Of a stretch of 46,325 nucleotides of DNA, positions 5,730 to 46,325 are shown piece by piece. The translations under genes were made by a program, and so were the position numbers. Location of the stretch: the IMG/VR virus record IMGVR_UViG_3300045988_046749. One strand, written 5' to 3'. The DNA is from a virus. Position 1 is the first letter of the stretch. The number at the start of each line of letters is the position of its first letter. The notes under the pieces were generated by a model that was given only the letters and a program-made list of their open reading frames with translations, searched no databases and was not told where the DNA came from.

Positions 5730-6125
5730 ATGGCATTTTCGATAAGCAAATCAATAACTGATAGATACAAGATAAATGGGCTTCTCATCCCTCAGCCAGA
5801 TGAGGACATGCAGTGTAATTTTGAGACCACCTATTCAGAAGGAAGTAACCGAACTCAAAAAGGAGTTGCGCTAATAACTCCACTTTTTACAGTTATGCAA
5901 TATAGCTATAAAGCCACCAATGTGCCAGTTGATGAGAAATCAACTAATCTGGTAAATGCAATTATTAAAGGAAAGCCATTCATTTTACATCACTGGTTAG
6001 CACACAAAAATGAATGGCGTTCAGAAAAGTTTTACGTGGGAAAAATGAATTACAACATAAAACAAGTTGGGGAATACTATTCCGAAATATCATTTAATAT
6101 GCAGGGGGTGAATCCACTTGATTAA
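5730..6125 (+). CDS. Putative distal tail protein (short, Dit-like by position)
   Basis: 131-aa ORF between the tape measure and the large tail fibre gene, with SD GGGGGGTGA. The call rests on position only. Confidence 0.4.
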   Translation: MAFSISKSITDRYKINGLLIPQPDEDMQCNFETTYSEGSNRTQKGVALITPLFTVMQYSYKATNVPVDEKSTNLVNAIIKGKPFILHHWLAHKNEWRSEKFYVGKMNYNIKQVGEYYSEISFNMQGVNPLD

Positions 6126-9100: not shown

Positions 9101-10500
9101 GCGCACAAGGTATTCCAGGAAAAGCAGGTGCGGACGGAAAGACACCATATCTCCATATAGCTTATGCGAACAGCGCTGACGGAAAAAATGGATTTGATAT
9201 AGTTGTTAGCTCTGGAAAACAATATATTGGACAGTATACTGATTATACACCAGGTGACAGCACTGACCCGACAAAGTATAGCTGGACGAAGATAAAAGGC
9301 GAACAGGGCGATAAAGGAGAGCAAGGTGTACCTGGTAGGACATATTTTATCGAGCTTTCATCCAATATCCTAAAGCGAGGTCAGAATGATAAGGTTTTAC
9401 CAAGTACAATTACGGCAAAAGCTTATTATCGAGATGGTGACAGCGCTGCAAGAACAGCATATTCTGGTAGATGGTATGTGCAGACTTCCACGGATGGCTC
9501 TACATTTACAAACGCATTGGTTTCAACTGTAAATGAGTCGAGTAAAAGTTATACTGTTAGCTCACTGGATAGAAGCGTTGTGTCTGTTAGATTTATTCTG
9601 TATGCTGCTGGCGGAACTACAAATCAGCTGGATATGCAATCTGTCCCTGTGGTGATAGATGTGGACGCACTTACCCACGAAGAGATATTTAATCTTCTTA
9701 CAAATAATGGTTCCATGAAAGGAATTTATAAAGAGGGCAACCAGTTATATATTTCGTTCACTTATGCAAAAGGCGGAGTATTGAAGCTTGGCGGTCCGAA
9801 TAATGGATATGGCACTTTTGAGGTGTACGACAAAGACGGAAATATTATTTGTAAAATAAATAACGAAGATGGCTTCAAAAACATAAAAGGAAGCGAATGG
9901 GCGCAGATAAAAGAATCTATATTTAGCGCTGGATTTGGAAACATAACTGATGGAATCCTTGATTTATCAGCGCAATATGAAAATAAAAGAAATGTTGTTT
10001 TGCAATCAATAACCGGTGATTTGATTCTTAAAGTAGCACAAAATTTTATGATTGAAGGAATGAAATCACTAACAGGTGGTAATCCAATGATGTTTAACCC
10101 ATCATATTTGTATGTTGGATATTCTTCATCATCCTCCATGCATTATAAAGTGCTTGGGAAAACCGTAAAAGAAGATGAACTGGAAGACCTATACAGAATC
10201 AAAGTAATCTGGGCGAAATACAAAGACGGGTATTTATCTGAACGAGATGAACGATATGGCAAAGAAATGCCAATGTTTATAGCTGAAGACATCGACCGAA
10301 GATTTCCAATCGCTGTTGACCATAATGAAAAAGGCAAAGCTGAGAACTGGAACTATCGTATTATGATTCCTTGTATGTTCGCTATGCTAAAAAATGAGCA
10401 TGAAAAAGTCAAAAATTTACAATCTGAGCTTGATTCCGTGAAAGCAGAATTAAATGAATTAAAGCAACTTATCAAACAACATATTTCAATGGAGGTATAA
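6118..10500 (+). CDS. Tail fibre / tail-associated structural protein with collagen-like repeats and a C-terminal intramolecular chaperone (S74-like) domain
   Basis: 1,460 aa with a TTG start after GGGGGTG. The N-terminal region looks like a phage minor structural/Tal protein. Five G-X-Y runs flank four ~50-75-aa modules. The C-terminus ([52 protein letters not shown]) matches the tail-spike chaperone domain pattern. Confidence 0.85.
   Translation: [1460 protein letters not shown]
8308..9336 (+). repeat. Collagen-like G-X-Y runs alternating with four repeated modules (coding repeat inside the tail fibre)
   Basis: [50 protein letters not shown] followed by (T/S)(P/S)Y(L/T)(H/W)I(K/A)YA...YIG.Y.D....DS..P..Y.W...KG, four times. 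Confidence 0.85.
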
Positions 10501-10504
10501 GACT

Positions 10505-10963
10505 ATGGCAAATAACATATGGAGTAATTACACAGAAAAAACAGCAACACCAGTAGATGCAGATGAAGTAATGGTTCGTGATTCCACAGACGGAAAAAAC
10601 AAAAGACTTCTTTTTGGCACTTTCTGGAAGTGGGTAGCTAAGAAATTAAACGAGGCTACCATTTCGGAATTGCAGACCAATAACAAGACAATCATCGGGG
10701 CAATAAATGCACTAAATAGTGAGCTCGATTTTGTGACATTCGCAAGTAGCAGCAATGAAGTAACTGGAATAAAGGAATATTTAATAACAAATAAACCAAA
10801 ATCAATTACAATTTTTAAAGTAGGAAATTCTGGATGTGCTATAGCAACTCCTTACAATACATATGGAGAAGGATACATCGGATTTTTATATTTTGATTAT
10901 TTTGCAAGTTCTCCATCTGACTTGAAATTATATTCTTATCAGAATGGAAAATGGATAAGTTAA
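10505..10963 (+). CDS. Hypothetical tail-fibre-associated protein
   Basis: 152 aa with SD GGAGGT. The N-terminus (TATPVDADEVMVRDSTDGKNKRLLFGTF) resembles N-termini seen on phage fibre/receptor-binding accessory proteins. Confidence 0.4.
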   Translation: MANNIWSNYTEKTATPVDADEVMVRDSTDGKNKRLLFGTFWKWVAKKLNEATISELQTNNKTIIGAINALNSELDFVTFASSSNEVTGIKEYLITNKPKSITIFKVGNSGCAIATPYNTYGEGYIGFLYFDYFASSPSDLKLYSYQNGKWIS

Positions 10964-10978
10964 ATAGCAACAGGAGAA

Positions 10979-11266
10979 TCATATTTTTGTTAATGTCATT
11001 ACAATCCACGTGTTAGTTGAAACTTTTAATGTATTACCATCTAAAGTAAAATTAGTTCCGGATAATTCTGGATTGACAGAAAGTATGCCACCAGTTTTTT
11101 CTTCTGACATTCTGCTAAGTGCTACAGCGAACCCTATGTCTACTATATTAGCTGCGTTTATTGTAGCATAGCAAATTAGATACGAACTTTCATCGTCTAA
11201 TATAATAGATTTGCCATCTGAAGGATTTATTGTAATATGTTCTGCATGAGTTAAGCTATTTATCAC
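10979..11266 (-). CDS. Hypothetical protein (reverse-strand ORF between tail and lysis genes)
   Basis: 95-aa ORF with protein-like composition and no competing + strand ORF. It has a GTG start and no clear SD, so it is uncertain. Confidence 0.35.
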   Translation of the reverse strand: MINSLTHAEHITINPSDGKSIILDDESSYLICYATINAANIVDIGFAVALSRMSEEKTGGILSVNPELSGTNFTLDGNTLKVSTNTWIVMTLTKI

Positions 11267-11367
11267 TATAGAGTTTATTGGAGAGATAAGAAAAAAAATA
11301 ACAAAACACTACCAAACATAAAATGAATATGATATAATCGGTATATCAAAATCGGAAAAACAAAAAG

Positions 11368-11407
11368 GGAGCTGAGTTCCCGTCTACCAAACAAAAAACT
11401 CAGCTCC
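11368..11407. other. Perfect 10-bp inverted repeat with 20-nt loop
   Basis: GGAGCTGAGT (11368-11377) pairs with ACTCAGCTCC (11398-11407). On the minus strand it is followed by CTTTTTGTTTTT. Confidence 0.6.
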
Positions 11408-11440
11408 AAGCACCACAAAGGGGTACGACTATATTATATA

Positions 11441-11480
11441 AAAATGTGGGGCTGAAATTCACAATTGCTCATTGTATCAT
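11441..11480 (+). promoter_or_regulatory. Late promoter copy A (AAATGTGGGG box + -10 TATCAT)
   Basis: AAAATGTGGGGC at 11441-11452 and TATCAT at 11475-11480, with the same 23-nt gap as copies B and C. It lies 30 nt upstream of the endolysin start. Confidence 0.6.
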
Positions 11481-11509
11481 GTACTTATCAATATGAAAGG
11501 AATGATACA

Positions 11510-12526
11510 ATGAGCAAATTACAGGAATTTTTAAACCTTGGTGATTATTACGCATCCAACTGCGGGTACCTTGAGAAGAAAAGTAATGCCTATCTGGATG
11601 ATTTTAAAAAGAATGCAGGATATAACAATTATACCAAATTTGCAAGAGATGTAAATTCTTGGGGACAGCCAGGATGCCAGGGGCAGCCGTGGTGCGCGGA
11701 ATATCAGTTCTGGAAGCTGGTAAAAGTAATTGGAATCACAAATGCCATCAAAATCATGGGCGGTGGTTTTTACAATTGCGTATCCATCACTAACTGGGCA
11801 AAGAAAAAAGGCACTTGGCATAATACTCCAAAGGTAGGTGCGCTTGTAATCTTCCGCAATGGTTCTCATGTTGGAAGCGTGCAAAGTTTTGATAGCTCGA
11901 GAATCTATACAAACGAAGGAAATACTTCTAGTGTAGCTGGAGTGGTAGCAAATGGCGGTGCTGTTCGCAATAAATCCTACTCCATCAACGATTCAGCAAT
12001 CGACGGATATGTTTGGATTGATTGGGAATCTTACGAAGGTACCGCAACCTGGAAAAAAACAGGAACCAGAGTGGCGACTGTGAACGATTTATACGTCCGC
12101 GAGACACCGAATGGTTACGTTATGGGTTCAATCAATAAAGGAACCGTTGTTGAAATTGACGGAAAGACAAACGGAAAGTGGACGCATGTTAAAGTTTCCG
12201 GAATTGGTATTGGTTGGATCTGGACTGGATACCTTGCAAAGGAATCGGTTAATAAACCGGTTAATAAGCCAATTGTAATTTCAAATAAACAGGATAAGAG
12301 CCAGGTTCTCTTCAAGGGGAATGTAACCGCAACCGTTCTGAATGTCCGAACTTGGGCCGGTGAGGAATATCCAAAAATTAAAAAATATCCGACACTCAAC
12401 CAGGGAAATGAAGTAGAAGTTATGAACTATACGCAGAAAGCCAAAAACGGCAGCAAATGGTATTATATCCGTATCGCAGGAAAGTATTATGGCTTTGTAT
12501 CTGCAAAATATGTTAAGAAACAGTAA
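11510..12526 (+). CDS. Endolysin: CHAP/NlpC-P60-like cysteine peptidase + two SH3-like cell-wall-binding domains
   Basis: Cys motif GQPWCAEYQ, His motif NGSHVGSV about 60 aa later, then NEGNTS. Two C-terminal SH3-like repeats are present (VNDLYVRETPNGYV...GWIWTGYL and VLNVRTWAGEEYP...YGFVSAKYV). Confidence 0.85.
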   Translation: MSKLQEFLNLGDYYASNCGYLEKKSNAYLDDFKKNAGYNNYTKFARDVNSWGQPGCQGQPWCAEYQFWKLVKVIGITNAIKIMGGGFYNCVSITNWAKKKGTWHNTPKVGALVIFRNGSHVGSVQSFDSSRIYTNEGNTSSVAGVVANGGAVRNKSYSINDSAIDGYVWIDWESYEGTATWKKTGTRVATVNDLYVRETPNGYVMGSINKGTVVEIDGKTNGKWTHVKVSGIGIGWIWTGYLAKESVNKPVNKPIVISNKQDKSQVLFKGNVTATVLNVRTWAGEEYPKIKKYPTLNQGNEVEVMNYTQKAKNGSKWYYIRIAGKYYGFVSAKYVKKQ

Positions 12527-12566: not shown

Positions 12567-12618
12567 TTAATGACAACATCAATGAGCTAGTTCGCCAGTA
12601 CATAGAAGATATCATTAA
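12567..12618. other. Candidate attP core (imperfect inverted repeat next to the serine integrase)
   Basis: TTAATGA...TCATTAA ends. 17 of 24 positions are symmetric around about 12592/12593. It lies between the lysin terminator and the integrase stop. Confidence 0.35.
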
Positions 12619-14189
12619 TTATTCTTCTGGATTTTTGGGAAAATGTCGAGCTGAAAACCAATCTCGTTGCCCTTCCCATAAGCGTTTTTGGTATCTTTTG
12701 AGTATGTAACCTTTTCAATTAAACTCTTAAGCATTTTATTCTTGGATTCCGTGTCAAGGCTCCAATAGTTATCAAGCAGTTCTTCACAACGCGGGATAAA
12801 ATCCGACTGTTGTTTTATAATATTCTCGTCATGTTTGATTTCTTCTTTTAATTTTTCTATAGTGTCGGAGCATAACTGGATAGATGCGGATATTGTTTTG
12901 GCACGTTCAAGAAAAATCTCCGTGGTGTAGATTCCCTGTTCGAGCAGATCATATTGTTTTGCTTTTTGGGTATTTAAGCTTTCTAGTTCACTTTCTTTTT
13001 CACGTATAAGATTTTGCTTAGATACTATACCGGAATTGATAGCATTGGATGGAACATTAATATCATTATTCAGCTTATACTTCTCTGCTATTTCTTTGAT
13101 TCCATCAAGCACAGCTTTTTCGACTAGAGACAATTTGCTGCTCACTGTAGAGCAAGACGTATATGGACACATGAGAGTATCTTCCTGTCCACGTTTTTGA
13201 TAAGGGCGGCGGACCATAGCGCGACCACACTTGCTGCAATAGACAATTCCGGCAAGCGGATTGCGAATCGAGTTTGCTATACTAACTGGGCGAGGCGGGT
13301 TCTTTTTTCGTATTTCCTGTACGGAGTTAAACAGGTCCTCCGATATAATAGCTGGATGTAATCCTTCACAGACAAGGATGTCCCTGGACCGTGGGCGCGT
13401 CTTAATCACTTGTCCATTCTGTATAGTCTTTACAGTCTTTCTGCCATTCCACCGGATTTTCCCTGTATACACCGGATTTGTTAGAATTCCCTGTATGCTG
13501 GCAGGAGTCCAGTCGCCGCCTAGTGCAGATTCTATACCCATTTCATTTAATTTCCGCACAATCTTCGCGACTCCAATTTGTTCACAGCCATCACCTGCAT
13601 ACCAGGTGTAGATCATTTTTACAACCTCGGCTTGAGCTGGAACAGGCCTGAGAGTATAACCTTTTTCTTTTTCGAGTTTTACTCTTTTGTATCCGTAAGG
13701 TGGTTTGTTACCACAGTATTTGCCCTCTTTTACGGATGAAATTCTTCCAGCGTTCAGACGGCGCTTGATGGTTTTATATTCTCTTCGGCTCATAAATAGT
13801 CCAAACTCAAAATACTCTTCATCAAATTCGTTGTTCGGATCGTATATTTTTGTTGGGGTAATAATCTTCGTGTCAGAGTATTGAAAAGCTCTGGACACAA
13901 CACCTTGGTCGATGGTATCACCTCTGGCAAGACGTTCTACTTCGACAACTAGAACACCGTCCCACAGCCCGGATTCTACCTCATGCAGAAGTTGCTGCAT
14001 GACAGGACGGTCGGCGATAGTTTCCCCAGATACCACTTCGCGGTAAATTGCGCCTACAATGTACTCTTTTTTCTTTGCAAGATCTAACAGGATCCGTTCA
14101 TGTCTGGCGAGGGTTTCACCCTCTCCATGCGCTTCAGCTTCCCGATCGGCTCTGGATTTCCTTAGATAGATGCATACTGATTCGTTCAT
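12615..14189 (-). CDS. int: Large serine recombinase (integrase)
   Basis: 524 aa. N-terminal resolvase catalytic motif (YLRKSRADRE), a recombinase domain, a zinc ribbon (CSKCGRAMV...CPYTSC) and a C-terminal coiled coil. SD AGGAGA upstream. Confidence 0.93.
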   Translation of the reverse strand: MNESVCIYLRKSRADREAEAHGEGETLARHERILLDLAKKKEYIVGAIYREVVSGETIADRPVMQQLLHEVESGLWDGVLVVEVERLARGDTIDQGVVSRAFQYSDTKIITPTKIYDPNNEFDEEYFEFGLFMSRREYKTIKRRLNAGRISSVKEGKYCGNKPPYGYKRVKLEKEKGYTLRPVPAQAEVVKMIYTWYAGDGCEQIGVAKIVRKLNEMGIESALGGDWTPASIQGILTNPVYTGKIRWNGRKTVKTIQNGQVIKTRPRSRDILVCEGLHPAIISEDLFNSVQEIRKKNPPRPVSIANSIRNPLAGIVYCSKCGRAMVRRPYQKRGQEDTLMCPYTSCSTVSSKLSLVEKAVLDGIKEIAEKYKLNNDINVPSNAINSGIVSKQNLIREKESELESLNTQKAKQYDLLEQGIYTTEIFLERAKTISASIQLCSDTIEKLKEEIKHDENIIKQQSDFIPRCEELLDNYWSLDTESKNKMLKSLIEKVTYSKDTKNAYGKGNEIGFQLDIFPKIQKNN

Positions 14190-15745: not shown

Positions 15746-15774
15746 TTGACATTCGGATATTTCGAAGTTATACT
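15746..15774 (+). promoter_or_regulatory. Cro-side early promoter
   Basis: TTGACA (15746-15751), a 17-nt spacer, then TATACT (15769-15774). Operator O2 fills the spacer. Confidence 0.65.
15752..15766. promoter_or_regulatory. Operator O2 (TTCG-N7-CGAA)
   Basis: TTCGGATATTTCGAA, centred 29 bp from O1. Confidence 0.6.
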
Positions 15775-15781
15775 ATAATTG

Positions 15782-33421: not shown

Positions 33422-33721
33422 ATGCGTACAAGGCAAAAGTCACTTGTTGATTTTGGTGTATATCCGGAGGACGTTAACCGTTTAAAGGATATATGCCAGA
33501 AAGCTACACCAGAGCAGAGACACGATATTTTACACTGCTGCATAAGTTCTTGCCCTCCAGGAATTGAACTTTTGGTGTACGAATCTATTGTAGCAAACAA
33601 ATCTTATGATCGTATTATGAAGACAAAGTACATACCGGCAAAGCGAGATGATTTCTACGCATACAAGCGCAAGGCAATGGCTATGTTTTACGATACTCTA
33701 AGAAAACTAAGAGAAATATAA
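33422..33721 (+). CDS. Candidate late transcriptional activator (ArpU/RinA-like by position)
   Basis: 99 aa, the last gene before late promoter copy B and terS. The C-terminal FYAYKRKAMAMFYDTL is reminiscent of small sigma-r4-like phage regulators. Confidence 0.4.
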   Translation: MRTRQKSLVDFGVYPEDVNRLKDICQKATPEQRHDILHCCISSCPPGIELLVYESIVANKSYDRIMKTKYIPAKRDDFYAYKRKAMAMFYDTLRKLREI

Positions 33722-33737
33722 TACTAAAATTAATATT

Positions 33738-35725: not shown

Positions 35726-37171
35726 ATGGGACTTATAACAACACTAAAAAGGTGGTTTAACATGATTTTTAAAAAACAAGCCGAAGAGGATTTTAATATC
35801 CAGGCAGCGGAATTTCCAGAAATGGAATCGCTGATTAACCGGTGTGCGAACATATACAGGGGCGTACCAGAGTGGCTAGATGATAAGAATAATATCAAGA
35901 CAATTAATTTCGCGAAATCTGTCTGCTCAGAGACAGCACGGCTCGCAACGCTGGCGATCGGTATTCAGATAGACAGTTCTGCAAGGGCAACATGGCTTCA
36001 GGAGCAAATCGATAAGGTATATTTCCAAATTCGGCACTGGGTGGAATATAGCTGCGCTTATGGAACAGTTTTTATTAAACCAAACGGTGAGAGCCTTGAC
36101 GTATTCACTCCGGCAGACGTGATGATCGTAGATTACGACAATCAGGAAATAAAGGGGATTATATTCAAGGATTCTTATACTGTTGGACGGAAATACTACA
36201 CAAGGCTTGAATATCATAGATTTGTTAAAACCACCGTGGATGGCGTGACAACCTATCCGTACTACGTTTCCAACAGGGCTTATGTATCAAAATCCCCTCA
36301 GTCAATCGGCGACAGAATCGACCTTAAACAGACCAAATGGGCCGACCTCATGGCAGATACGCCACCGATTCTAAAAGCGAATGGCGAGAAGCTGGACGGG
36401 CCGCTATATGGAGTACTGCGTACACCACAGGCGAACAATGTAGATATTAGTGCACCACTTGGACTTCCAATTTTTGCTGAGGCTATCGAAGAACTGAAAG
36501 ACCTCGACATTGCATACAGCCGTAATGCCGGAGAGATTTTTGATTCTCAGAAGATTGTTCTGGCAGATGATAGACTACTGATGCCAAGCGGTACACCTGT
36601 ATCAGCCATGTCACCACAGGGCATGGAGAACAGACGGAATGAAATGAACTTACCGCACTTTGTCAAGAATGTGTTCGGGCAGGACGAGAAAGAGTTTTAC
36701 CAAGAAATCAATCCGCAACTCAACACTGATACCCGTATAAGTGGCATAAACGCCCTTTTAAGCCAGTTGGGATACAAGATTGGATTCTCCAATGGCTACT
36801 TTGTTTTTAATGAATCTAGTGGCATTCAGACGGCTACGGGAGTGGAAGCGGAACAGCAGAGGACAGTGCAGTTTATCAAAGACGTTCGAGACAAACTGGA
36901 ATCCTGCCTGGATGAAGTAATCTACGCACTGAACGTTTACGCTGACTTGTACGGAATTGCGCCTGTTGGAGCTTATGAAGTCAATTATGATTTCGGTGAT
37001 ATCCTGTATGTGCGTGAAAACGACCGTGCACGATGGTGGCAGTATGTGACCACTGGCAAAGTTCCGGCATGGCTGTATTTCGTGAAATTTGAGGGAATGA
37101 CGAAAGACGAGGCGGTGGCAATGGTCAAAGAAGCTCAGCCAGACGAACCAACATTATTTGGAGATGAGTAG
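35726..37171 (+). CDS. Portal protein (SPP1 Gp6-like)
   Basis: 481 aa, positioned between terL and the MuF-like gene. Confidence 0.85.
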   Translation: MGLITTLKRWFNMIFKKQAEEDFNIQAAEFPEMESLINRCANIYRGVPEWLDDKNNIKTINFAKSVCSETARLATLAIGIQIDSSARATWLQEQIDKVYFQIRHWVEYSCAYGTVFIKPNGESLDVFTPADVMIVDYDNQEIKGIIFKDSYTVGRKYYTRLEYHRFVKTTVDGVTTYPYYVSNRAYVSKSPQSIGDRIDLKQTKWADLMADTPPILKANGEKLDGPLYGVLRTPQANNVDISAPLGLPIFAEAIEELKDLDIAYSRNAGEIFDSQKIVLADDRLLMPSGTPVSAMSPQGMENRRNEMNLPHFVKNVFGQDEKEFYQEINPQLNTDTRISGINALLSQLGYKIGFSNGYFVFNESSGIQTATGVEAEQQRTVQFIKDVRDKLESCLDEVIYALNVYADLYGIAPVGAYEVNYDFGDILYVRENDRARWWQYVTTGKVPAWLYFVKFEGMTKDEAVAMVKEAQPDEPTLFGDE

Positions 37172-37173
37172 TT

Positions 37174-38403
37174 ATGCTAAGCCCAGAATATTTACGACAG
37201 ATAACAGAGGGCAGTGAACAAATTGCAGAAGAATTGCACCAGTATATCATCTCTGAGATCGTGTCAAGGATGATGGCAAGAATCGGCAGAGGTGAGGACT
37301 ATATCCTGACCAATGCCGATGCGTGGAGAATCAGAACGTTACAGGAATCCGGTGAATTGCTAGAGGACATTCTAGCGGAACTATCCAAATACACCAAACG
37401 TGAACAGCAGGAACTTCTTGAAGCGTTTGAAGATGCCGGAATCACTGCGATGAACTACGATGATAAGATATACAAGGCGGCAGGATTAAGTCCTGTGCCG
37501 CTCGAACAGTCGCCGGCCATGATAAGGCTCATGGAGCGGAATATGCTTGCAACCATGGGCGAGTGGAAGAACTTCACAAGAACCGCCGCAAGCGCTGCTC
37601 AAAGACTCTATATCGAGCAGTGCGACCTTGCATATAATCATGTGATGACTGGGTCAGTTGGGTATATGCAAGCCATTAAAGAGGCAGTTAATAACATTAT
37701 ATCAGATGGTGTCACCGTCACATATCCATCCGGCAGAAAAGACACGATCGAAACAGCAGTTGCACGTTCTGTCAGAACTGGTGTGGCACAGGCTACGGGG
37801 GATATATCCCTAAAACGTATGGAAGAAATGGACTGGGATTTAGTTCTGGTCAGTGCGCACATGGGAGCCAGAACAGGTGATGGCGGTGAGAATCCGGGAA
37901 ATCACTCATGGTGGCAAGGTAAGATATACTCTCGTTCTGGCAAGAGTAAGAAATTTCCGCCATTCTCATTGACCGGATATGGGACAGCAAGTGGACTATC
38001 AGGAGTCAACTGTCGGCATAGTTTTGGAGCCAGTGACGGGGAATTTAATCCCTACGCAGAATTATCGACAAAGGATAAAGCCGACAAAGGCAAACAGTAT
38101 GAAAAAGAACAACGGCAACGTACTTACGAGCGAAGAATCCGCAAGACGAAGCGTGAAGTTCTCGGACTGCAAGCAGGAGTTGACAATGCACCGAACGAAA
38201 AGGCGAAATTCGCATTGCAACAAGACCTTGACCGGAAGTCTTATCTTTTACAGAAACAAAATGCTGCATATAAGGATTACTGTAAGCAGAACGACCTGAG
38301 GGAGCTGCAAGACCGGCTCATGATAGCGAAGTGGAACCGTCAGAACGCCGCAAAAGCCAGAGGAGCGGCGAAACGGTATAAAACAGCAAAGGGGATTGAC
38401 TGA
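37174..38403 (+). CDS. Minor head protein (Mu F / SPP1 gp7-like)
   Basis: GENPGNHSWWQGKIYS and SGVNCRHSF motifs, with a basic coiled C-terminus. Confidence 0.85.
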   Translation: MLSPEYLRQITEGSEQIAEELHQYIISEIVSRMMARIGRGEDYILTNADAWRIRTLQESGELLEDILAELSKYTKREQQELLEAFEDAGITAMNYDDKIYKAAGLSPVPLEQSPAMIRLMERNMLATMGEWKNFTRTAASAAQRLYIEQCDLAYNHVMTGSVGYMQAIKEAVNNIISDGVTVTYPSGRKDTIETAVARSVRTGVAQATGDISLKRMEEMDWDLVLVSAHMGARTGDGGENPGNHSWWQGKIYSRSGKSKKFPPFSLTGYGTASGLSGVNCRHSFGASDGEFNPYAELSTKDKADKGKQYEKEQRQRTYERRIRKTKREVLGLQAGVDNAPNEKAKFALQQDLDRKSYLLQKQNAAYKDYCKQNDLRELQDRLMIAKWNRQNAAKARGAAKRYKTAKGID

Positions 38404-38789
38404 TGAACAGATGGGAATATTACAATCCGAACCCTGCCGGGAATCGAGTCGGAGATTGCGTTGTCCGGGCAATATGCAAAGCAACCGGCTTTGATTGGGA
38501 AACGGTATTCGCCGGATTAATGGTACAGGCGTGTGCTCTGTCAGATATGCCAAGCGCCAATTATGTATGGGGATCATATTTAGCGAAGCATGGATTCCAC
38601 AGAAAGCTTGTGGAGCAGTCAGAGAGGTATATTTATACAGTAAATGACTTCTGCACAGATCATCCGACTGGTACATACATCCTCTGCATAGATGGACATG
38701 TGGTAGCAGTACAGAACGGCAAATATTATGATACATGGGATAGTGGTAATGAGATCCCGGTATATTACTTGGAAAAGGAGAATAAATGA
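38403..38789 (+). CDS. Hypothetical protein with Cys/His dyad pattern (possible papain-like peptidase fold)
   Basis: YNPNPAGNRVGDCVVRAICKA ... IDGHVVAVQNGKYYDTWD. ATGA-type overlap with the MuF-like gene. Confidence 0.35.
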   Translation: MNRWEYYNPNPAGNRVGDCVVRAICKATGFDWETVFAGLMVQACALSDMPSANYVWGSYLAKHGFHRKLVEQSERYIYTVNDFCTDHPTGTYILCIDGHVVAVQNGKYYDTWDSGNEIPVYYLEKENK

Positions 38790-39091
38790 GCATATCAGAA
38801 TTTGTACAGATTTTCCTCTCTATCTGCGGAGGAGTGTCTATTGTCGGGGGAGCGGCAGCCGTAATTTTTAAGTGGATTGCCCCGGCGTTTCGGCTCAATA
38901 AGCGAGTAGAGACACTGGAAGAACATGATAGGCGAGATTATGAAAGCCTTCGGAGAATCGCAGAGCGTGATTCATTAATTCTGGAAGTATTATCAACCAT
39001 GTTGGACAGTCAGATCAACGGCGACAATGCAGAGGAATTAAAAAAAACAAAACAGAAGCTTACAAATTATCTTGCACAGAATCAGCGTTAA
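38786..39091 (+). CDS. N-terminal TM + coiled-coil protein
   Basis: 101 aa. TM FVQIFLSICGGVSIVGGAAAVIF. Confidence 0.55.
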   Translation: MSISEFVQIFLSICGGVSIVGGAAAVIFKWIAPAFRLNKRVETLEEHDRRDYESLRRIAERDSLILEVLSTMLDSQINGDNAEELKKTKQKLTNYLAQNQR

Positions 39092-39114
39092 TTGCATTAA
39101 TAAGAGGTATGCTC

Positions 39115-39315
39115 ATGAAATTATATGTGTTCACAAAGAAAGATATAGACAGGTTCTTGATAGAGTGTAATTTCACGCCGGACGAAGAAAGACTGTTCCG
39201 GTTGAGATGTAAGGAATACACTCTTGAATACTGCGCTGAACAAATGAATGTGAGTATATCTACAGCGAAACGATTAAGCCGCCGAGTAAATAATAAAATA
39301 ATCAAAGTGTGTTGA
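39115..39315 (+). CDS. Small sigma-70 region-4-like HTH protein
   Basis: TLEYCAEQMNVSISTAKRLSRRVNNKI. The ATG at 39115 is 7 nt after AAGAGG. Confidence 0.5.
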   Translation: MKLYVFTKKDIDRFLIECNFTPDEERLFRLRCKEYTLEYCAEQMNVSISTAKRLSRRVNNKIIKVC

Positions 39316-39338
39316 TACTTTTTAGACACTAATTAGAG

Positions 39339-39369
39339 CCAGAAACGACCTGTTTCCGGTTCTTTTTTT
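39339..39369 (+). terminator. Rho-independent terminator
   Basis: CCAGAAAC / GTTTCCGG stem (7 of 8 pairs) with a 5-nt loop, followed by TTCTTTTTTT. Confidence 0.65.
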
Positions 39370-39403
39370 GTGCAAAAATATAATCAGAAAGGCGGTGTAT
39401 AAG

Positions 39404-39871
39404 ATGGCATTATATAACAATCCTTATCAATATAGTTTCGGCGTTCCAGGACAGATGAACCAGTTCCAGCAGCCTGTCCAGATGCCGGCCCAGCCAGTAC
39501 AACAACCTCAGCAGAATAGCAATGGTATCCTGTGGGTATCTGGCGAAGTTGGCGCAAAATCCTATCTGGTAGCGCCCGGGACAAGTGTTTTGCTGATGGA
39601 TTCAGAATCAGAGAAATTTTACATAAAATCCACAGATGTTTCCGGTATGCCACAGCCATTACGGACGTTTGAGTATCATGAAGTAGGCGCTCAGATGCCG
39701 CCTAAACAGCCTGTCCAAAACATGGACAATAAATACGTCACCAGACAGGAATACGACGATTTAAAAGCCAAATGCGAAGCTATAGCAAGTCGTTTAAATT
39801 CTTTTTCTGAACCTGTTAGGGCTAATACCACACAGGAATCAGCAGTCAAGGGAGGAAACGCAGATGAGTAA
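39404..39871 (+). CDS. Q/P-rich protein with conserved central domain
   Basis: 155 aa. The N-terminal 45 aa are Q/P-rich, followed by GILWVSGEVGAKSYLVAPGTSVLLMDSESEKFYIKSTDVSGMPQPLRTFEY. Confidence 0.6.
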   Translation: MALYNNPYQYSFGVPGQMNQFQQPVQMPAQPVQQPQQNSNGILWVSGEVGAKSYLVAPGTSVLLMDSESEKFYIKSTDVSGMPQPLRTFEYHEVGAQMPPKQPVQNMDNKYVTRQEYDDLKAKCEAIASRLNSFSEPVRANTTQESAVKGGNADE

Positions 39872-40085
39872 TCCATTATTCAATGTCCTCGGCGGTGGAA
39901 TACCGCAGGGAAACGGACCAATGCAGATGATACAGCAGTTTATGCAGTTTAAGCAGAATTTTAAGGGAGACCCGAAGGAAGAAGTTCAGAAGATGTTACA
40001 GTCTGGAAAGATTTCTCAGCAACAGCTTAATCAGGTTCAGCAGATGGCAGGACAGTTTCAGCACATACTAAAAGGAATGAAATAG
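39864..40085 (+). CDS. Q-rich small protein
   Basis: 73 aa with SD GGGAGGA. Contains QMIQQFMQFKQNF...QQQLNQVQQMAGQFQ. Confidence 0.55.
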   Translation: MSNPLFNVLGGGIPQGNGPMQMIQQFMQFKQNFKGDPKEEVQKMLQSGKISQQQLNQVQQMAGQFQHILKGMK

Positions 40086-40138
40086 TACATTACAATCTGG
40101 CCAGATTGATGTAAATACACAATAAAGGAGATTATATT

Positions 40139-40918
40139 ATGGATGGAAATTATAGCTTATCAGACATTGCAGCTGCTACTGGAAATGGCAGAAATAATGA
40201 CGGCATGTTTGGTGGAGATGGTAGCTGGTGGATTATTGTTTTATTCATTTTTGCTTTCTTCGGATGGGGAAACAACGGATGGGGCAATAACGGCAACGGC
40301 GGCGGATATACAGCCACAGCAGCTACTCAGGCAGACATTCAGAGAGGATTCGATAACTCCGCAGTAATCAGCAAGCTTGACGGAATCAATAGCGGCCTGT
40401 GTGATGGATTCTACGCCATGAACAACGGTATGCTTACCGGATTCAATGGAATCAACACAAATATTATGCAGACTGGTTTCGGCATTCAGCAGGCTATTAA
40501 TGCCGACACTGTAGCGAATATGCAGAATACAAATGCTTTACAGGCACAGCTTGCAAACTGTTGCTGTGAAACCAGAGAAGCTATCCAGGGCGTGAACTAC
40601 AACATGGCACAGAACACCTGTGCATTGCAGAACACCATGAACAGCAACACAAGAGACATTATTGACAGTCAGAATGCAGGAACAAGAGCAATTCTTGATT
40701 ATCTTTGCAACGAAAAGATTTCTAACTTGCAGGCTGAGAACAATGATCTCAGACGTGCCGCTTCTCAGGATCGCCAGAGCGCATTGCTCACAACTGCAAT
40801 GGCTTCACAGACACAGCAGCTCATTAATGCGATTAATCCGGCACCGATTCCGGCTTACCAGGTACCGAACCCGAACACATATTACGGATGCGGATGTAAC
40901 ACCGGATGTAATTGCTGA
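40139..40918 (+). CDS. Membrane protein with GWGNN repeats, an N/Q-rich ectodomain and a Cys-rich C-terminus
   Basis: 259 aa. TM WWIIVLFIFAFFGW, then GNNGWGNNGNGGG, a CCC triplet (LANCCCETRE), and an end of YYGCGCNTGCNC. Confidence 0.65.
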   Translation: MDGNYSLSDIAAATGNGRNNDGMFGGDGSWWIIVLFIFAFFGWGNNGWGNNGNGGGYTATAATQADIQRGFDNSAVISKLDGINSGLCDGFYAMNNGMLTGFNGINTNIMQTGFGIQQAINADTVANMQNTNALQAQLANCCCETREAIQGVNYNMAQNTCALQNTMNSNTRDIIDSQNAGTRAILDYLCNEKISNLQAENNDLRRAASQDRQSALLTTAMASQTQQLINAINPAPIPAYQVPNPNTYYGCGCNTGCNC

Positions 40919-41029
40919 TAACTTCATATCGAGAGTATCTTTCGATTGATTCGAATGTCGGCTTATGCCGTATTACACAGAGGGGCAGGCTGAGACCTGT
41001 CCTTTTGTGATATGAAAGGAGTAAAAATT

Positions 41030-41452
41030 ATGGCAGAATTTACAAGTGTAGCTGCTCAGACTGTAGCAGCAAATGGAAACGTAGTATTTTCAAACACAGC
41101 AGTTAAGGGCTCTAATTGCATTCAGCACAGAGAGGGAAGTGGAATTATTACACTGAGAGGACTTACTAACCAGTGCAAAGCGAGATTCTTTGTGGATTTT
41201 TCTGGCAATATCGCAATTCCAACAGGCGGTACTGTCGGAGCTATTTCTCTGGCTATTGCAATTTCTGGTGAGCCGGTTCTTTCTTCTCAGATGATCTCCA
41301 CACCGGCAGCAGTGGACCAGTACAATAATGTGTCCTCTGGTATCTACATTGATGTTCCTCGCGGCTGTTGCGTTAATATCGCAGTAGAAAATACGAGCGA
41401 TCAGGCGATTTCCGTTGCGAACGCAAACATTGTTGTGACTAGAGAAGCGTAG
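41030..41452 (+). CDS. BclA-C/ExsFA-like (C1q/TNF-like jelly-roll) protein
   Basis: 140 aa. The pattern AAQTVAANGNVVFSNTAV.G..IQHREGSGIITLRG...FFVDFSGN...ISLAIAISGEPV...NANIVVTR resembles Bacillus exosporium BclA C-terminal domains. Confidence 0.5.
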   Translation: MAEFTSVAAQTVAANGNVVFSNTAVKGSNCIQHREGSGIITLRGLTNQCKARFFVDFSGNIAIPTGGTVGAISLAIAISGEPVLSSQMISTPAAVDQYNNVSSGIYIDVPRGCCVNIAVENTSDQAISVANANIVVTREA

Positions 41453-41463
41453 GAGGTGCAGTT

Positions 41464-42027
41464 ATGAGAGACATTAAAGACTTATGCGCAAGAATTGAAG
41501 ACGAGCTGTCCAAAATCGCTGACAGTGGGTTGACTACTGGAAATCTGGAAATGACATACAAACTGATTGATATGTACAAAGATATAAAGAACACACAGTA
41601 CTGGGACAAAAAGGTGGAGTATTACAATACTGTCCTTGATGAGATGCGCAGTGGGTATAACGACAATTACAGCGAACGAGGTCGCAAACATGACAGTATG
41701 GGGAGATACAGCCGCAGTGATGGAAGAATGATGTACCCAGACTATGATCGTGGCAACTCTTACGGCGATGAAAGTCGCGACTACGGAACCGGAAGAGGGT
41801 ACTATAGTCGCTCCGATGGACGAGATGCTTATAGCGACTATATGACACAAAAACAAAGTTATCGATCTGGAAAGTCAGAGGAATGCAAGAGGAAAATGCT
41901 TTCCGCACTAGAAAAACACCTAAACGAACTCGCAACAGAATTGAGCGACATGTCCAAAGACGCAGAGTGCCGGGAAGAGCGTGATCTTGTTAAGAGATAC
42001 GTCGAGAAATTAAGAGATATACTTTGA
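41464..42027 (+). CDS. Protein with helical ends and an R/S/D/Y/G-rich disordered centre
   Basis: 187 aa with repeated YSRSDGR(M/D). SD AGGAGGTG. Confidence 0.6.
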   Translation: MRDIKDLCARIEDELSKIADSGLTTGNLEMTYKLIDMYKDIKNTQYWDKKVEYYNTVLDEMRSGYNDNYSERGRKHDSMGRYSRSDGRMMYPDYDRGNSYGDESRDYGTGRGYYSRSDGRDAYSDYMTQKQSYRSGKSEECKRKMLSALEKHLNELATELSDMSKDAECREERDLVKRYVEKLRDIL

Positions 42028-42033
42028 TTCTTG

Positions 42034-42076
42034 CAAATGTGGGGACAACTTTTTTAAAAGAATGTGATACTATAAT
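42034..42076 (+). promoter_or_regulatory. Late promoter copy C (AAATGTGGGGACAA box + -10 TACTAT/TATAAT)
   Basis: Box at 42034-42048. TACTAT at 42068-42073 overlaps a perfect TATAAT at 42071-42076. Confidence 0.65.
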
Positions 42077-42356
42077 CTTGCAAGGCATGGTGAACCTTGT
42101 AAGACTTGCTGATTAGAAGTTTTTGCTTTCTTTTTCATTTCATGTCCTCCTTTCTTTTGTGAATATGTCCTTAATAGAAACAGATTTGAGCGGAATCTGG
42201 AGGTTGAAAAGCGGGTGCAATTTCCGACATATTCATTAGCCAGTGTGATTGACTGGTGGAACACCTCATCATGAATGAAACAACATCTCCGTGAAAGTCG
42301 GATAGTGGTAGGCATAACACGATAAATACCTTGCTAACCCGGGAATCCGGGTTATG

Positions 42357-42425
42357 TGGAATGTACGCTAGTGGAAAACTGACAGAGTCGCTCTCTGGTC
42401 TCCGGTTCGATTCCGGGCGTTCCGC
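42357..42425 (+). ncRNA. tRNA-like element (acceptor stem + T-arm, no canonical D or anticodon arm)
   Basis: TGGAATG pairs with CGTTCCG (two G-U pairs). The T-arm is TCCGG-TTCGATT-CCGGG. The middle forms a 5-bp stem with a 5-nt loop. Only 68 nt long. Confidence 0.4.
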
Positions 42426-42544
42426 TTTGATTCGGTTAAAATTATGCTGTTTGCTTGCAAGCGGTCTATGATTTGGCTGAATTTATCTCATGAGAAAAGG
42501 TTATTGCTCATCCTGTTGTCTGGTGTCCGGATCAAAAAGCATAA

Positions 42545-42618
42545 TGGAATGTAGCTCAGTTGGAAGAGCGGAGGGCGCATAGTCCTTGACGTCGGTGGTT
42601 CGAGTCCACCCTTTCCGA
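42545..42618 (+). tRNA. tRNA-like gene with CAU anticodon (Met/Ile2-type), non-canonical features
   Basis: Manual cloverleaf: acceptor TGGAATG/CTTTCCG (one mismatch, one G-U), D-arm GCTC-AGTTGGAA-GAGC, anticodon arm GAGGG-CGCATAG-TCCTT (G at position 33), a 6-nt variable loop, and T-arm GGTGG-TTCGAGT-CCACC. Confidence 0.5.
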
Positions 42619-42695
42619 TTACCCTGCCAGTGGTCTAACTGGCTTAATCCAATACCTGCGGCGGCAGGTCAATAAACACGACCAGGAGGATATAT

Positions 42696-43328
42696 ATGCA
42701 GAAACTTATTGACACATTAAAATCATTTGGAATCGAAATCCCGGAGGACAAACAGGCAGATGTTAAGAAGGCACTCTCTGAGCATTACAAAAATGCAAAG
42801 GAAGTAGCAAAAACTCTGTCGAAAGTCGAGGGTGAACGTGATAGCTGGAAAGTACGTGCTGAGACAGCAGAAGAAACTTTGAAAGGCTTTGACGGTATCG
42901 ACCCGGCAAACATTCAGACAGAGCTTGCTGGATGGAAGAAAAAAGCCGAGGATGCAGAGAAAGAATTTAATGCAAAAATCTACGACCGTGATTTCTCAGA
43001 TGCTCTGAAAGCAGCGCTCGATGATGTTAAATTTTCCAGTGAAGCGGCTAAGAGGTCTGTTATGGCAGACATTAAAGAAGCAGGTCTTAAGCTGAAAGAC
43101 GGTAAAATCCTTGGGCTGAACGATCTGATCGAGCAGATGAAACAGTCTGACGCATCCGCTTTCGTGGATGAATCTCAGCAGCAGGCTCAGCAGAATCAGG
43201 CAAGATTTACTACTCACGTTGGACAGCAGCAGACACCGGGAAGCATGACGAAGAAAGATATTGAAGCAATCAAAGACCCGTCCGAGAGACAGGCTGCAAT
43301 TGCTCAGAATATCCAGTTATTCCAGTGA
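42696..43328 (+). CDS. Scaffolding protein (GP20-like)
   Basis: 210 aa, helical and charged, with a Q-rich tail. Immediately upstream of the major capsid gene. SD AGGAGGA. Confidence 0.8.
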   Translation: MQKLIDTLKSFGIEIPEDKQADVKKALSEHYKNAKEVAKTLSKVEGERDSWKVRAETAEETLKGFDGIDPANIQTELAGWKKKAEDAEKEFNAKIYDRDFSDALKAALDDVKFSSEAAKRSVMADIKEAGLKLKDGKILGLNDLIEQMKQSDASAFVDESQQQAQQNQARFTTHVGQQQTPGSMTKKDIEAIKDPSERQAAIAQNIQLFQ

Positions 43329-43363: not shown

Positions 43364-43406
43364 CTAACCCAATACCTTAATAATTATGGGTAGAAAGGAT
43401 TTTTTT

Positions 43407-44573
43407 ATGCCAGCAAAAACAAATCTTATTATGACTAATGATATCCAGGTCACAGCACGTGAGATTGACTTTGTAACCAGATTCGAAAGAAACTGGCAGC
43501 ACTTACGTGACATTCTGGGTATCATGAGACCTATCAAAAAACAGCCGGGTGCTGTACTGAAATCTAAGTACGCAGAGGGTACTTTACAGAGTGGACTTGT
43601 CGGTGAGGGTGAGGAAATTCCTTACAGCAAGTTCACTGTAAAAGAAAAGAACTATGCGGAAATGACTATCGAGAAGTACGCAAAGGCTGTATCTATCGAA
43701 GCAATCAAGGATCATGGTTATGAGAACGCTGTTCAGATGACCGATGATGAATTCCTTTTCCAGCTTCAGACTGATGTTACCAGCAGATTCTATGACTATC
43801 TGAAAACCGGTACACTTACTTCCACAGAAACCACATTCCAGATGGCTCTGGCAATGGCCAAAGGTCGTGTTGAGAACAAATTCAAACAAATACACAGAAA
43901 TGTGACTGGCGTTGTTGGATTTGTGAACATTCTGGACGTATATGAATACCTTGGAGCAGCTGAAATCACCATTCAAAACCAGTTCGGCTTCCAGTATATG
44001 AAAGACTTCATGGGATTCAATACTATCTTCCTGCTATCTGACAGTGAGATTCCAAGAGGACAGGTTATCGCTACCCCTGTCGAGAACATCGTGCTGTACT
44101 ATGTAGATCCGAATGAATCTGACTTTGCAAGAGCAGGACTTGTATATACTGTTTCTGGCGAGACAAACCTGATTGGATTCCACACTCAGGGCAACTACCA
44201 CACAGCAGTGTCCGAAGCGTTCGCAGTAATGGGACTTACTCTTTTTGCAGAGTACATTGACGCAATCGCAGTAATTACCATTGACGAGACACCAACGCTT
44301 GGAACTCTGACAGTAACATCTGCGGCAGGGACAGCAAGTGGCGACACAAAAATCACTGTAAATCCAGCTAAAGAAAATGCCAACAACGTATATAAATACA
44401 AAGTTGCAGCGGATGCAGTAACTGTCGGATACGGACAGAATCTCAGAAACTGGAGCACTTGGGATGGAAAAGCCGATATCACAGCGGCAACCGGACAGAA
44501 GATCACAGTGGTTGAGTGCGATGGAACATACAAGGCGCTGAATGCCGGAAGTGCAAGCGTAACAGCAAAATGA
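43407..44573 (+). CDS. Major capsid protein with C-terminal Ig-like domain
   Basis: 388 aa from ATG 43407. N-terminal REIDFVTRFERNWQHLRDILGIMRPIKK. The C-terminal ~90 aa are Ig-like (TLTVTSAAGTASGDTKITV...ASVTAK). Confidence 0.85.
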   Translation: MPAKTNLIMTNDIQVTAREIDFVTRFERNWQHLRDILGIMRPIKKQPGAVLKSKYAEGTLQSGLVGEGEEIPYSKFTVKEKNYAEMTIEKYAKAVSIEAIKDHGYENAVQMTDDEFLFQLQTDVTSRFYDYLKTGTLTSTETTFQMALAMAKGRVENKFKQIHRNVTGVVGFVNILDVYEYLGAAEITIQNQFGFQYMKDFMGFNTIFLLSDSEIPRGQVIATPVENIVLYYVDPNESDFARAGLVYTVSGETNLIGFHTQGNYHTAVSEAFAVMGLTLFAEYIDAIAVITIDETPTLGTLTVTSAAGTASGDTKITVNPAKENANNVYKYKVAADAVTVGYGQNLRNWSTWDGKADITAATGQKITVVECDGTYKALNAGSASVTAK

Positions 44574-45942: not shown

Positions 45943-46325
45943 ATGTATTCATCTAAAATTACACTTTTCAACTATTACGAAAGTGCCACAACTGGAGATG
46001 CGTACTGGTATCCTCATGTTTTATCCGGCGTTGACCTCATTACGGACAAGGGAGCAATACTCAAGAAGTACGGACCGGACGCAACAGACAATGCGCAGTT
46101 GCACGTCCGATATACCGTCCAGAACGGCGATATAACCATTGCTGATAAGGATGGAAAGATTCTCCCGTGGATACCGCCCAAAGAATGGAAAGGGCAGATT
46201 AACAACGCTTTGGAAGACACTATCACATTCTCGGACGAATCATTCTTCTGGGAGGGTGAGTGGACTGGCAGAACGGTAACTGATGGTGATTATCGGAATG
46301 GATTCTATCAGTACATGAACGAGAA
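45943..46325 (+). CDS. 5' part of the head-tail joining protein that continues at 1..134 through the circular junction
   Basis: ATG after AAGGAGAGGG, with an open frame to the window end. The 46271-46325 overlap is in phase with 1-55. Confidence 0.75.
   Translation, partial: MYSSKITLFNYYESATTGDAYWYPHVLSGVDLITDKGAILKKYGPDATDNAQLHVRYTVQNGDITIADKDGKILPWIPPKEWKGQINNALEDTITFSDESFFWEGEWTGRTVTDGDYRNGFYQYMNE
46271..46325. repeat. Terminal overlap identical to 1..55
   Basis: Exact 55/55 identity. Confidence 0.97.

Follow-up and report, generated by a model that had tools for sequence, protein, structure and literature searches.

A gene block between the MuF and scaffold genes of a human-gut phage is very probably a mobile cassette and encodes a predicted BclA-C/ExsFA-type protein

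The window analyzed here is the whole 46,325-nucleotide stretch of IMG/VR virus record IMGVR_UViG_3300045988_046749. It carries five genes of low sequence complexity (A to E) between the portal and MuF genes on one side and the scaffold and major capsid protein genes on the other. A sequence-only reading of the window took the five for a module that splits the head-morphogenesis operon. Do they belong to head assembly, or are they a unit of their own that came to lie there? Linkage and genomic context in other phages indicate that the block is very probably a mobile, autonomous cassette rather than a module of head morphogenesis. In the window, this cassette would span 38403-42027 and comprise genes for three further proteins (p128, p101, and p68), a terminator, and A to E. 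An identical 55-bp repeat occupies bases 1-55 and 46271-46325, so the window represents a complete phage genome, circular and 46,270 bp in length. The phage is temperate (serine integrase at 12615-14189). It is represented by hundreds of near-identical IMG/VR contigs from human-gut samples and ranks among the most frequently assembled human-gut phages.

All five open reading frames were found on the plus strand where the reading had placed them. A (39404-39871, alternative start TTG upstream at 39368) encodes 155 aa, with an N-terminus rich in Gln, Pro, and Asn (26%, 14%, and 12% of residues 1-42), a conserved ~50-aa beta-rich core, and a C-terminal helix. B (39864-40085) encodes a 73-aa Gln/Met-rich protein (22% Gln). 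C (40139-40918) encodes a 259-aa single-pass membrane protein with one hydrophobic segment (GSWWIIVLFIFAFFG, residues 28-42), GWGNN repeats, and 10 Cys. D (41030-41452, alternative ATG at 41012) encodes a 140-aa protein with a predicted BclA_C/ExsFA-fold jelly roll. E (41464-42027) encodes 187 aa, in which helical N- and C-terminal parts flank a disordered center rich in Arg, Ser, and Tyr (16% each of residues 61-135) and in Gly and Asp (13% each). The composition biases described in the reading are borne out by these residue counts in A, B, C, and E. Each of the five matches a PHROG family of unknown function (E = 7e-27 to 1e-61), including phrog_21718 for A (E = 7e-38), phrog_22984 for B (E = 7e-27), phrog_16490 for C (E = 2e-58), and phrog_28802 for E (E = 4e-53). 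They are therefore genuine conserved genes and not chance reading frames.

Pfam and PHROG matches also identify the flanks as described: portal (35726-37171) and MuF (37174-38403) upstream, scaffold (42696-43328; PF06810, E = 1e-21) and major capsid protein (43386-44573, plus strand; phrog_544) downstream. No Pfam or PHROG head-category match was found for A to E, in line with the view that none of the five is a standard virion component. Window proteins and 43 diverse homologues or positional equivalents were searched against Pfam, NCBIfam, and PADLOC, and nothing was found for A, B, C, E, p128, or p101. Matches to PADLOC defense models were insignificant (C to ZorA, E = 0.007, 13 bits; E to Cas11a, E = 0.02). 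Phmmer and profile searches of PDB sequences gave no significant match for A, C, D, E, or D2, a protein that replaces D in other cassettes. Neither a signal peptide nor a hydrophobic segment was found in A, B, D, or E.

Linkage of the genes was examined in two samples. The first was anchored on D and used one genome per species; 169 stretches with a D relative were found, and the best 80 were analyzed by profile search. D homologues are present in genomes of at least 169 species. Among the 80 loci, C was found in 76, E in 76, A in 69, a B-type gene in 66, and p128 in 51. The order is always [p128][small HTH] A B C D E, where HTH denotes a helix-turn-helix protein, and most absences fall on truncated contigs. 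Hosts are overwhelmingly gut and rumen Clostridia of the Lachnospiraceae, Oscillospiraceae, and Acutalibacteraceae, and relatives are present as prophages in Lachnospiraceae chromosomes. The few assignments to other phyla, on short or phage-sized contigs of metagenome-assembled genomes, are probably binning artifacts.

The second sample was anchored on C and comprised 95 loci: 80 diverse IMG/VR contigs (33-64% identity to a divergent C in a single-sequence scan), GenBank phages, and the window. A lies upstream of C in 83 of 92 loci. A gene for a 73-80-aa protein rich in Gln, Met, and Asn, of two sequence types (B and B2), lies between A and C in 80 of 92. C is followed by a small beta-rich Cys-containing protein in 89 of 93 loci, D in 58 and D2 in 29. 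D2 carries an N-terminal Cys cluster before its beta-rich body and replaces D in about a third of cassettes. An Arg/Asp/Tyr-rich protein follows the D position in 86 of 93 loci: E in 51, a fusion to DUF7841 (DUF7841 match, E = 1e-29) in 18, and a protein termed F2 in 16. A by-eye likeness of F2 to ferritin was dropped, as it found no Pfam support. The five genes thus form a block in other phages, the test that the sequence-only reading had proposed. Linkage in both samples rejects the independent occurrence of the genes that would have spoken against a module.

The order is fixed, and the genomic context varies. In the 95 C-anchored loci, the block lies among head genes in 16 cases, follows endolysin or holin genes in 43, and has another context in 36, so that it is outside head operons in 79. 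All 16 loci with head context (MuF ... scaffold) belong to the window phage and its relatives. In Butyrivibrio virus Ceridwen, p128-A-B-C-D follows the endolysin gene and precedes an XRE/antirepressor region. The block lies between endolysin and integrase genes in Dulem virus 33, adjoins the integrase gene among replication genes in Dulem virus 39, and is found between antirepressor and Gam/Erf genes in Clostridium perfringens phage XP41-N3. Homologues of the portal, MuF, and scaffold genes are contiguous in MT835513 (19579-25598), where the cassette lies ~17 kb away, across the record ends. The variable contexts and the uninterrupted head genes of MT835513 indicate that the position in the head operon is a secondary insertion in one lineage, which does not support the reading's framing of a module that splits head morphogenesis. 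One lineage of temperate Lachnospiraceae siphophages would have gained the cassette between MuF and scaffold; the insertion gap in this lineage also gathered a RAGATH-21 RNA and a tRNA. The internal order is identical in at least three genomic contexts and the upstream terminator is conserved, as expected of a moron or autonomous accessory cassette. An HNH endonuclease gene lies on the opposite strand between B and C in Dulem virus 33 (L085 9178-9729, minus strand); the cassette tolerates insertion of a homing endonuclease.

The block proved larger than the five genes first delimited. Three more genes at 38403-39315, between MuF and A, belong with it, and at least two of the three accompany the cassette elsewhere, so the unit exceeds five genes. 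The first, p128 (38403-38789, plus strand), starts in overlap with the MuF stop codon and encodes a 128-aa, putatively papain-like protein with Cys, His, and Asp, an accessory member of the cassette. C19, H99, and D110 are invariant in 55 sequences. In an AlphaFold2 model (pLDDT 92.7), Cys19 starts a helix, His99 opens a strand, and D110 closes the next strand, a predicted papain-like geometry. A Foldseek search of the model against PDB found no significant neighbor; the best was the papain-like deubiquitinase Josephin-2 (E = 0.15, TM 0.43). The position of p128 within the cassette varies, directly 5′ of A in loci L081, L085, L092, and L094 and 3′ of E in L122, L129, L145, and L162, yet it stays with the cassette. 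An HExxH protein (M78/SprT/PolyVal-like) replaces it in other cassette versions, and a peptidase-like gene of either kind usually accompanies the block. Polyvalent proteins typically contain peptidase domains of the papain-like or HExxH ("PolyVal") kind, and a PolyVal-annotated HExxH protein follows cassettes of the crAss/Bacteroides type. Unlike the polyvalent proteins associated with MuF, p128 is a separate gene, mostly beside A or E and far from MuF, and no toxin domain was detected.

The second gene, p101 (38786-39091, plus strand), encodes 101 aa with an N-terminal hydrophobic helix (hydrophobicity peaks at residues 6-20) and a C-terminal coiled coil, a holin-like architecture. Homologues lie between the endolysin and HTH genes in L113 and L114 and 5′ of the endolysin gene in Ceridwen. 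A protein with a transmembrane helix and coiled coil, either p101 or one in the equivalent position, is often encoded ahead of the HTH gene. p101 may resemble BhlA/UviB-type proteins. Neither p101 nor C matches a lysis family (holin, spanin) in Pfam or PHROG. The third gene, p68 (39109-39315, plus strand), encodes a 68-aa sigma-70 region-4-like HTH protein, a putative regulator of the cassette (Sigma70_r4, E = 0.007; phrog_1190 sigma factor, E = 2e-6; TIGR02937, E = 9e-5). A positional equivalent (cluster 13) scores above the Pfam threshold (27.5 vs 24.1 bits). A small sigma-70 region-4 HTH protein (p68 or the related clusters 13 and 14) is present in 62 of the 95 C-anchored loci, usually directly 5′ of A or p128.

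An intrinsic terminator, a hairpin with a U-run, lies between p68 and A at 39339-39369 (plus strand), as the reading had proposed. It folds at a dG of -16.1 kcal/mol (z = -4.4), and none of 200 shuffles folds as well. In many unrelated loci, the HTH gene and A are separated by an equivalent hairpin with a T-run. No promoter of sigma-70 type was detected 5′ of A.

Window D has no Pfam match at E ≤ 1. Three orthologues (42-57% identity) match PF18573 (BclA_C) with 30.3, 27.7, and 20.6 bits (E = 4.4e-7, 2.8e-6, and 4.4e-4), all under the gathering score of 38. The matches cover nearly the whole profile in L083 and L092 and positions 5-89 of 128 in L091. D was modeled with AlphaFold2 as a monomer from a shallow alignment, and the model is all-beta (pLDDT 77.3, pTM 0.73). 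Foldseek against PDB returned as the best match the F-BclA C-terminal domain (9h38, E = 5.8e-8, TM 0.72-0.75), and further matches were the BclA C-terminal domain (1wck, E = 3e-6; 2z5w), ExsFA (7r1m, E = 1.8e-5), and BxpB (8d02, E = 3.3e-5). TM scores for F-BclA, BclA, ExsFA, and BxpB range from 0.67 to 0.75, and members of the TNF and C1q families follow in the list. In BFVD, the first neighbors are stand-alone ~135-aa phage proteins, followed by collagen/C1q proteins of giant viruses and phages. Cys113 and Cys114 are invariant (GCC at 112-114), and Cys30 and Cys49 are nearly so. The predicted jelly-roll domain fills the whole 140-aa protein, with no collagen-like GXY stalk, a feature found only in the tail-fiber gene. 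The reading's guess of a BclA-C/ExsFA domain is upheld by the orthologue matches and the model comparison, which point to a stalk-less jelly roll of this type and add D to the BclA_C/C1q-like fold class as a new and distant member that stands alone.

D shares its TNF/C1q-like jelly-roll fold with Bacillus ExsFA/BxpB and with the C-terminal domain of BclA. It further resembles ExsFA/BxpB in consisting of this domain alone (~140 aa), with no collagen stalk. Its gene adjoins those of Cys-rich proteins, and the exosporium proteins have a Cys-rich partner in ExsY/CotY. Cassette products lack signal peptides, as do the coat and exosporium proteins that the mother cell makes. The reading's analogy with spore-surface proteins is fair as to composition: a BclA_C fold beside Cys-, Tyr-, and Gln-rich proteins. 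With its vicinal Cys clusters, its low-complexity proteins, and a putative enzyme of papain-like, transglutaminase-like, or metallopeptidase type, the set is similar in fold and composition to proteins that form coat and exosporium layers by self-assembly in the cytoplasm of the mother cell. However, the sequence similarity is marginal (orthologues 30 bits vs a threshold of 38), C, the partner of D, is a membrane protein and not related to ExsY, and D was found only within the ordered cassette, never in a sporulation locus. Butyrivibrio, a host genus here, is not known to form spores. The check for sporulation loci that the reading had suggested came out negative: the ordered cassette surrounds D in the 80 D-anchored loci wherever the contig allows. 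No sporulation gene was identified beside any copy, with MuF/scaffold or endolysin genes on a minority of flanks and the other flanks unannotated. Structurally, D is closest to the C-terminal domain of F-BclA, the tip fibrillum of F-ENA, among the PDB matches, and we take the N-terminal Cys cluster of D2 to resemble the disulfide "connector" of Ena subunits. In contrast to the Ena systems, neither D nor D2 has a Pfam match to DUF3992/Ena or a PDB sequence match.

C is the universal member of the cassette. Its acidic N-terminal tail is followed by a Trp-rich hydrophobic helix, a Gly/Asn/Trp linker, and a helical region rich in Asn and Gln, in which a CCC is invariant. Further on come SQ and PxPxPAY motifs and a Cys tail of GCGC type at the C-terminus. 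The family, in which this architecture is conserved, comprises 2,136 representative clusters (50% identity) at E ≤ 1e-3, and 1,063 clusters reach E ≤ 1e-10. Most members are 220-300 aa long, shorter entries are fragment-like, and no domain fusions are evident. Homologues occur in crAss-like phages, in a Bacteroides uniformis phage, and in viruses assigned to Methanomassiliicoccales. The archaeal homologues (L095 6878-7759 in vir215; L096 6860-7783 in vir335) adjoin a tail-protein gene, and C is the only cassette family detectable in these two viruses. A reverse transcriptase gene also lies near the C homologue in vir215.

Records of crAss-like and Bacteroides phages label C homologues "spike protein/glycoprotein" or "outer capsid protein/viral fiber". 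The C profile matches the N-terminal part of influenza HA2 weakly and without significance (E about 1), and the labels probably stem from this resemblance. C resembles spanins and class I fusion proteins (HA2) in its N-terminal hydrophobic segment, rich in Gly and Trp, and in the long helical region after it, and its gene is often a neighbor of lysis genes. Unlike spanins, it has no lipoprotein partner, and the similarity to HA2 is non-significant. Neither Gram-positive bacteria nor Methanomassiliicoccales archaea, the hosts of the cassette or of C, are known to have an outer membrane.

In loci of the crAss/Bacteroides type, C is followed by a beta-rich Cys protein, a protein with a beta-rich N-terminal half and a C-terminal coiled coil (by eye), a 74-112-aa Arg/Asp/Tyr-rich protein, and an HExxH protein. 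DUF7841 (PF25223) comes last in some Firmicutes cassettes, fused to the Arg/Asp/Tyr-rich region (L132 9119-9673; L124 9247-9948). It is encoded by a separate gene in a Bacteroides phage (L090 9967-10368) and in Dulem virus 40 (L088) and was not detected in crAss-like cr116_1. Comparison by hhalign of window-type D, A, E, and B with their equivalents of C. perfringens and crAss type found homology only between two A subtypes (probability 98%). Conservation with crAss-like phages is therefore claimed for C and DUF7841 only, the two families that connect Firmicutes-type with Bacteroides-type cassettes.

What would such a cassette do? The block is also present in crAss-like genomes, and crAss-like phages are virulent. 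Butyrivibrio virus Ceridwen was observed only in lytic growth, in a study that reports no virion proteomics (PMC7372960). The cassette is always co-oriented with structural genes, lies most often after lysis genes, and is present in phages known only as lytic. Transcription with or after the late genes is inferred from these features, and co-orientation and lytic-only carriers together suggest that its function probably belongs to the lytic cycle, and late in it. C alone carries a membrane-type segment, and A, B, D, and E lack signal peptides, so the partners would meet in the cytoplasm, on the inner membrane face, or after lysis. In the model that we prefer, the products meet at the cytoplasmic membrane through C. 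Putative D trimers would sit on a C stalk, with matrix or linker functions falling to A and B, both rich in Gln, and to E, rich in Tyr, Arg, and Asp. By analogy with ExsY, ExsFA, and BclA, the assembly would be built in the cytoplasm, as in a mother cell, and exposed on lysis. The most likely role would lie at the end of the infection cycle (cell envelope, egress, or fate of the progeny at release) and not in capsid assembly.

Confidence differs among the parts of this explanation. Whereas mobility of the cassette is very probable, a late-made, membrane-anchored, Cys-rich multi-protein assembly active at the end of infection is put forward tentatively, by analogy, as a possibility that falls clearly short of even. 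The explanation as a whole, mobile cassette and late membrane-anchored assembly together, is given slightly less than an even chance, and confidence in any specific role is low. Several points weigh against the assembly model. It is based on analogy of fold and composition. The Cys clusters, in the cytoplasm of strict anaerobes, may bind metal instead of forming cross-links. The flanks of the C helix have no positive charges and the N-terminal tail is acidic, so the positive-inside rule gives no topology. Proteins at the D, A, and E positions in crAss-type cassettes have no detectable homology to those of the window (hhalign probability below 5%). The site after the lysis genes is a classic place for unrelated cargo (morons), and adjacency to lysis genes may therefore be functionally meaningless.

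Three other explanations were weighed. One, in keeping with the framing of the sequence-only reading, makes the block an integral, specialized part of head morphogenesis, for example an assembly compartment or extra scaffolding. It would explain the position between MuF and scaffold in the window and 15 related loci, and the low-complexity regions rich in Gln and Asn or in Arg, Ser, Tyr, and Gly could in principle drive condensates. Against this stand the 79 of 95 loci outside head operons, the contiguous head genes of MT835513, and the terminator, which parts the block from the upstream head genes. Synteny largely refutes this explanation, which we consider very improbable. An accessory module of the virion, with capsid or tail decoration, fibers, or a cementing layer tipped by a D trimer for gut stability or adhesion, is judged unlikely. 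BclA_C/C1q-like domains commonly tip fibers of phages and giant viruses (BFVD collagen/C1q matches), and the tail fiber of the window phage itself bears a collagen stalk. The cassette keeps the orientation of the structural genes and lies among head genes in the window lineage. In crAss-like cr116_1, it is found 5′ of the major capsid protein gene and of a 379-aa open reading frame, a putative scaffold judged by its acidic N-terminus. C adjoins a tail protein in archaeal viruses, and its occurrence in viruses of Firmicutes, Bacteroidota, and methanogens speaks for a function that does not depend on the biology of the host cell. However, 36 of the 95 loci lie in other contexts, including early and replication regions and sites beside integrase genes. 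A membrane-type hydrophobic helix like that of C is unusual for a decoration protein, D has neither stalk nor anchoring domain, and the cassette includes a dedicated HTH gene with terminator and accessory peptidases. No homology to known decoration, scaffold, or fiber proteins was found.

A moron for lysogenic conversion or superinfection exclusion would be expressed from the prophage under its own regulator, with C blocking incoming DNA or altering the cell surface. The window phage is temperate, relatives reside in Lachnospiraceae chromosomes, and the cassette includes a membrane protein, an upstream terminator, and a small HTH regulator. Its usual place, from the lysis genes to the integrase or attachment site, is a classic moron site, and like morons it varies in position and has neighboring cargo (tRNA, RAGATH RNA) in its insertion zone. 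Morons usually consist of one or two genes. The cassette, in contrast, is a block of five to eight genes in fixed order across phages with unrelated structural genes, including phages without lysogeny genes or known only as lytic (Ceridwen, PMC7372960; crAss-like phages). A block of five to eight linked genes far exceeds known exclusion systems, and neither a sigma-70-type promoter 5′ of A nor a PADLOC defense match was detected. A moron of this kind is regarded as improbable, and a late, membrane-anchored assembly is retained as the preferred function of the mobile cassette.

A more specific form of the preferred model is offered as speculation and is rated improbable. The cassette could encode an undescribed gut-virus system that builds an intracellular, Cys-cross-linkable, exosporium-like layer or appendage, with C as stalk, a D trimer, and a Gln- and Tyr-rich matrix, matured by a dedicated peptidase or transglutaminase-like enzyme. 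Released at lysis, it would coat, tether, or protect the progeny or the envelope of the lysed cell. If so, tailed viruses of Firmicutes, Bacteroidota, and methanogens would have swapped the system for the sake of persistence in the gut and not of a host-specific step.

The gap that separates E from the scaffold gene (42028-42695), 668 bp long and non-coding, carries further features. The reading had placed a copy of a late promoter here as the right-hand fence of the block. A promoter-like motif is present, with weak support, but the gap also carries a RAGATH-21 RNA and a tRNA-Met. The -10-like sequence ATACTATAAT lies at 42067-42076 and recurs 5′ of TerS (33715) and at 15764. The motif ATACTA(T/A)AAT is common to 15764-15779, 33715-33730 (directly 5′ of TerS), and 42061-42076 (5′ of RAGATH-21 and scaffold), and these three sites are probably the late-promoter copies of the reading. 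A TTGACA -35 element accompanies only the copy at 15.7 kb. Four matches were found against 0.96 expected, and 2 of 100 shuffles reach four.

The RAGATH-21 RNA (42160-42235, plus strand) matches Rfam RF03097 with 91.4 bits (gathering score 70.3). It is present at the matching position only in head-context relatives (L083, L153, L160, and L169) and is best described as neighboring cargo of the insertion zone, with membership in the cassette doubtful. The tRNA-Met (CAT; 42545-42618, plus strand) was detected with ARAGORN and scores 38.7 bits with the Rfam tRNA model. Relatives carry tRNAs at the corresponding position, and this gene is neighboring cargo outside the cassette. A tRNA-like 3′ half (GGTTCGATTCCGGGCG...) lies at ~42330-42425, ~130 bp 5′ of the tRNA-Met, with no ARAGORN call and a weak match to the tmRNA model (E = 0.064). 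On the minus strand, a 22-codon open reading frame (42069-42137, MKKKAKTSNQQVLQGSPCLARL) with a strong GGAGGA ribosome-binding site faces away from the RAGATH-21 RNA and may be a small peptide gene or a chance occurrence. Related contigs carry a skipping-rope RNA (L169 15010-15093, plus strand) and a type II hammerhead ribozyme (L093 21-88, minus strand); the group of the window phage is rich in small structured RNAs.

Elsewhere in the window, bona fide holin and endolysin genes span 10505-12526, apart from the cassette, and include a CHAP/SH3 endolysin gene at 11465-12526; in other loci, such lysis genes lie 5′ of the cassette. In the tail-fiber protein (6118-10500, plus strand; 1,460 aa), collagen-like GXY repeats (DNA repeats at 8323-8645) are combined with a C-terminal motif resembling BppU. 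Fused to the C-terminus of the major capsid protein is an S-layer SbsC_C (Ig-like) domain (residues 314-394, E = 5e-16), which is likely a surface-exposed decoration domain.

No described phage system matches the cassette as a whole, although it is abundant, with carriers among thousands of gut phages, and widely exchanged. Apart from BclA_C in D and DUF7841 in other versions, its proteins match no characterized family, and no relevant literature was found on the cassette proteins, DUF7841, their PHROGs, RAGATH-21, or BclA in phages. For annotation, the block should not be read as head genes, and the "spike" and "outer capsid" labels of C homologues should be corrected. A fixed-order block of five to eight genes that moves between unrelated phages, with C reaching crAss-like and archaeal viruses, implies a strong general selective benefit. 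Identifying this benefit would explain a sizeable share of gut-phage "dark matter" and would supply the first functional context for proteins of the BclA-C/ExsFA fold outside spores.

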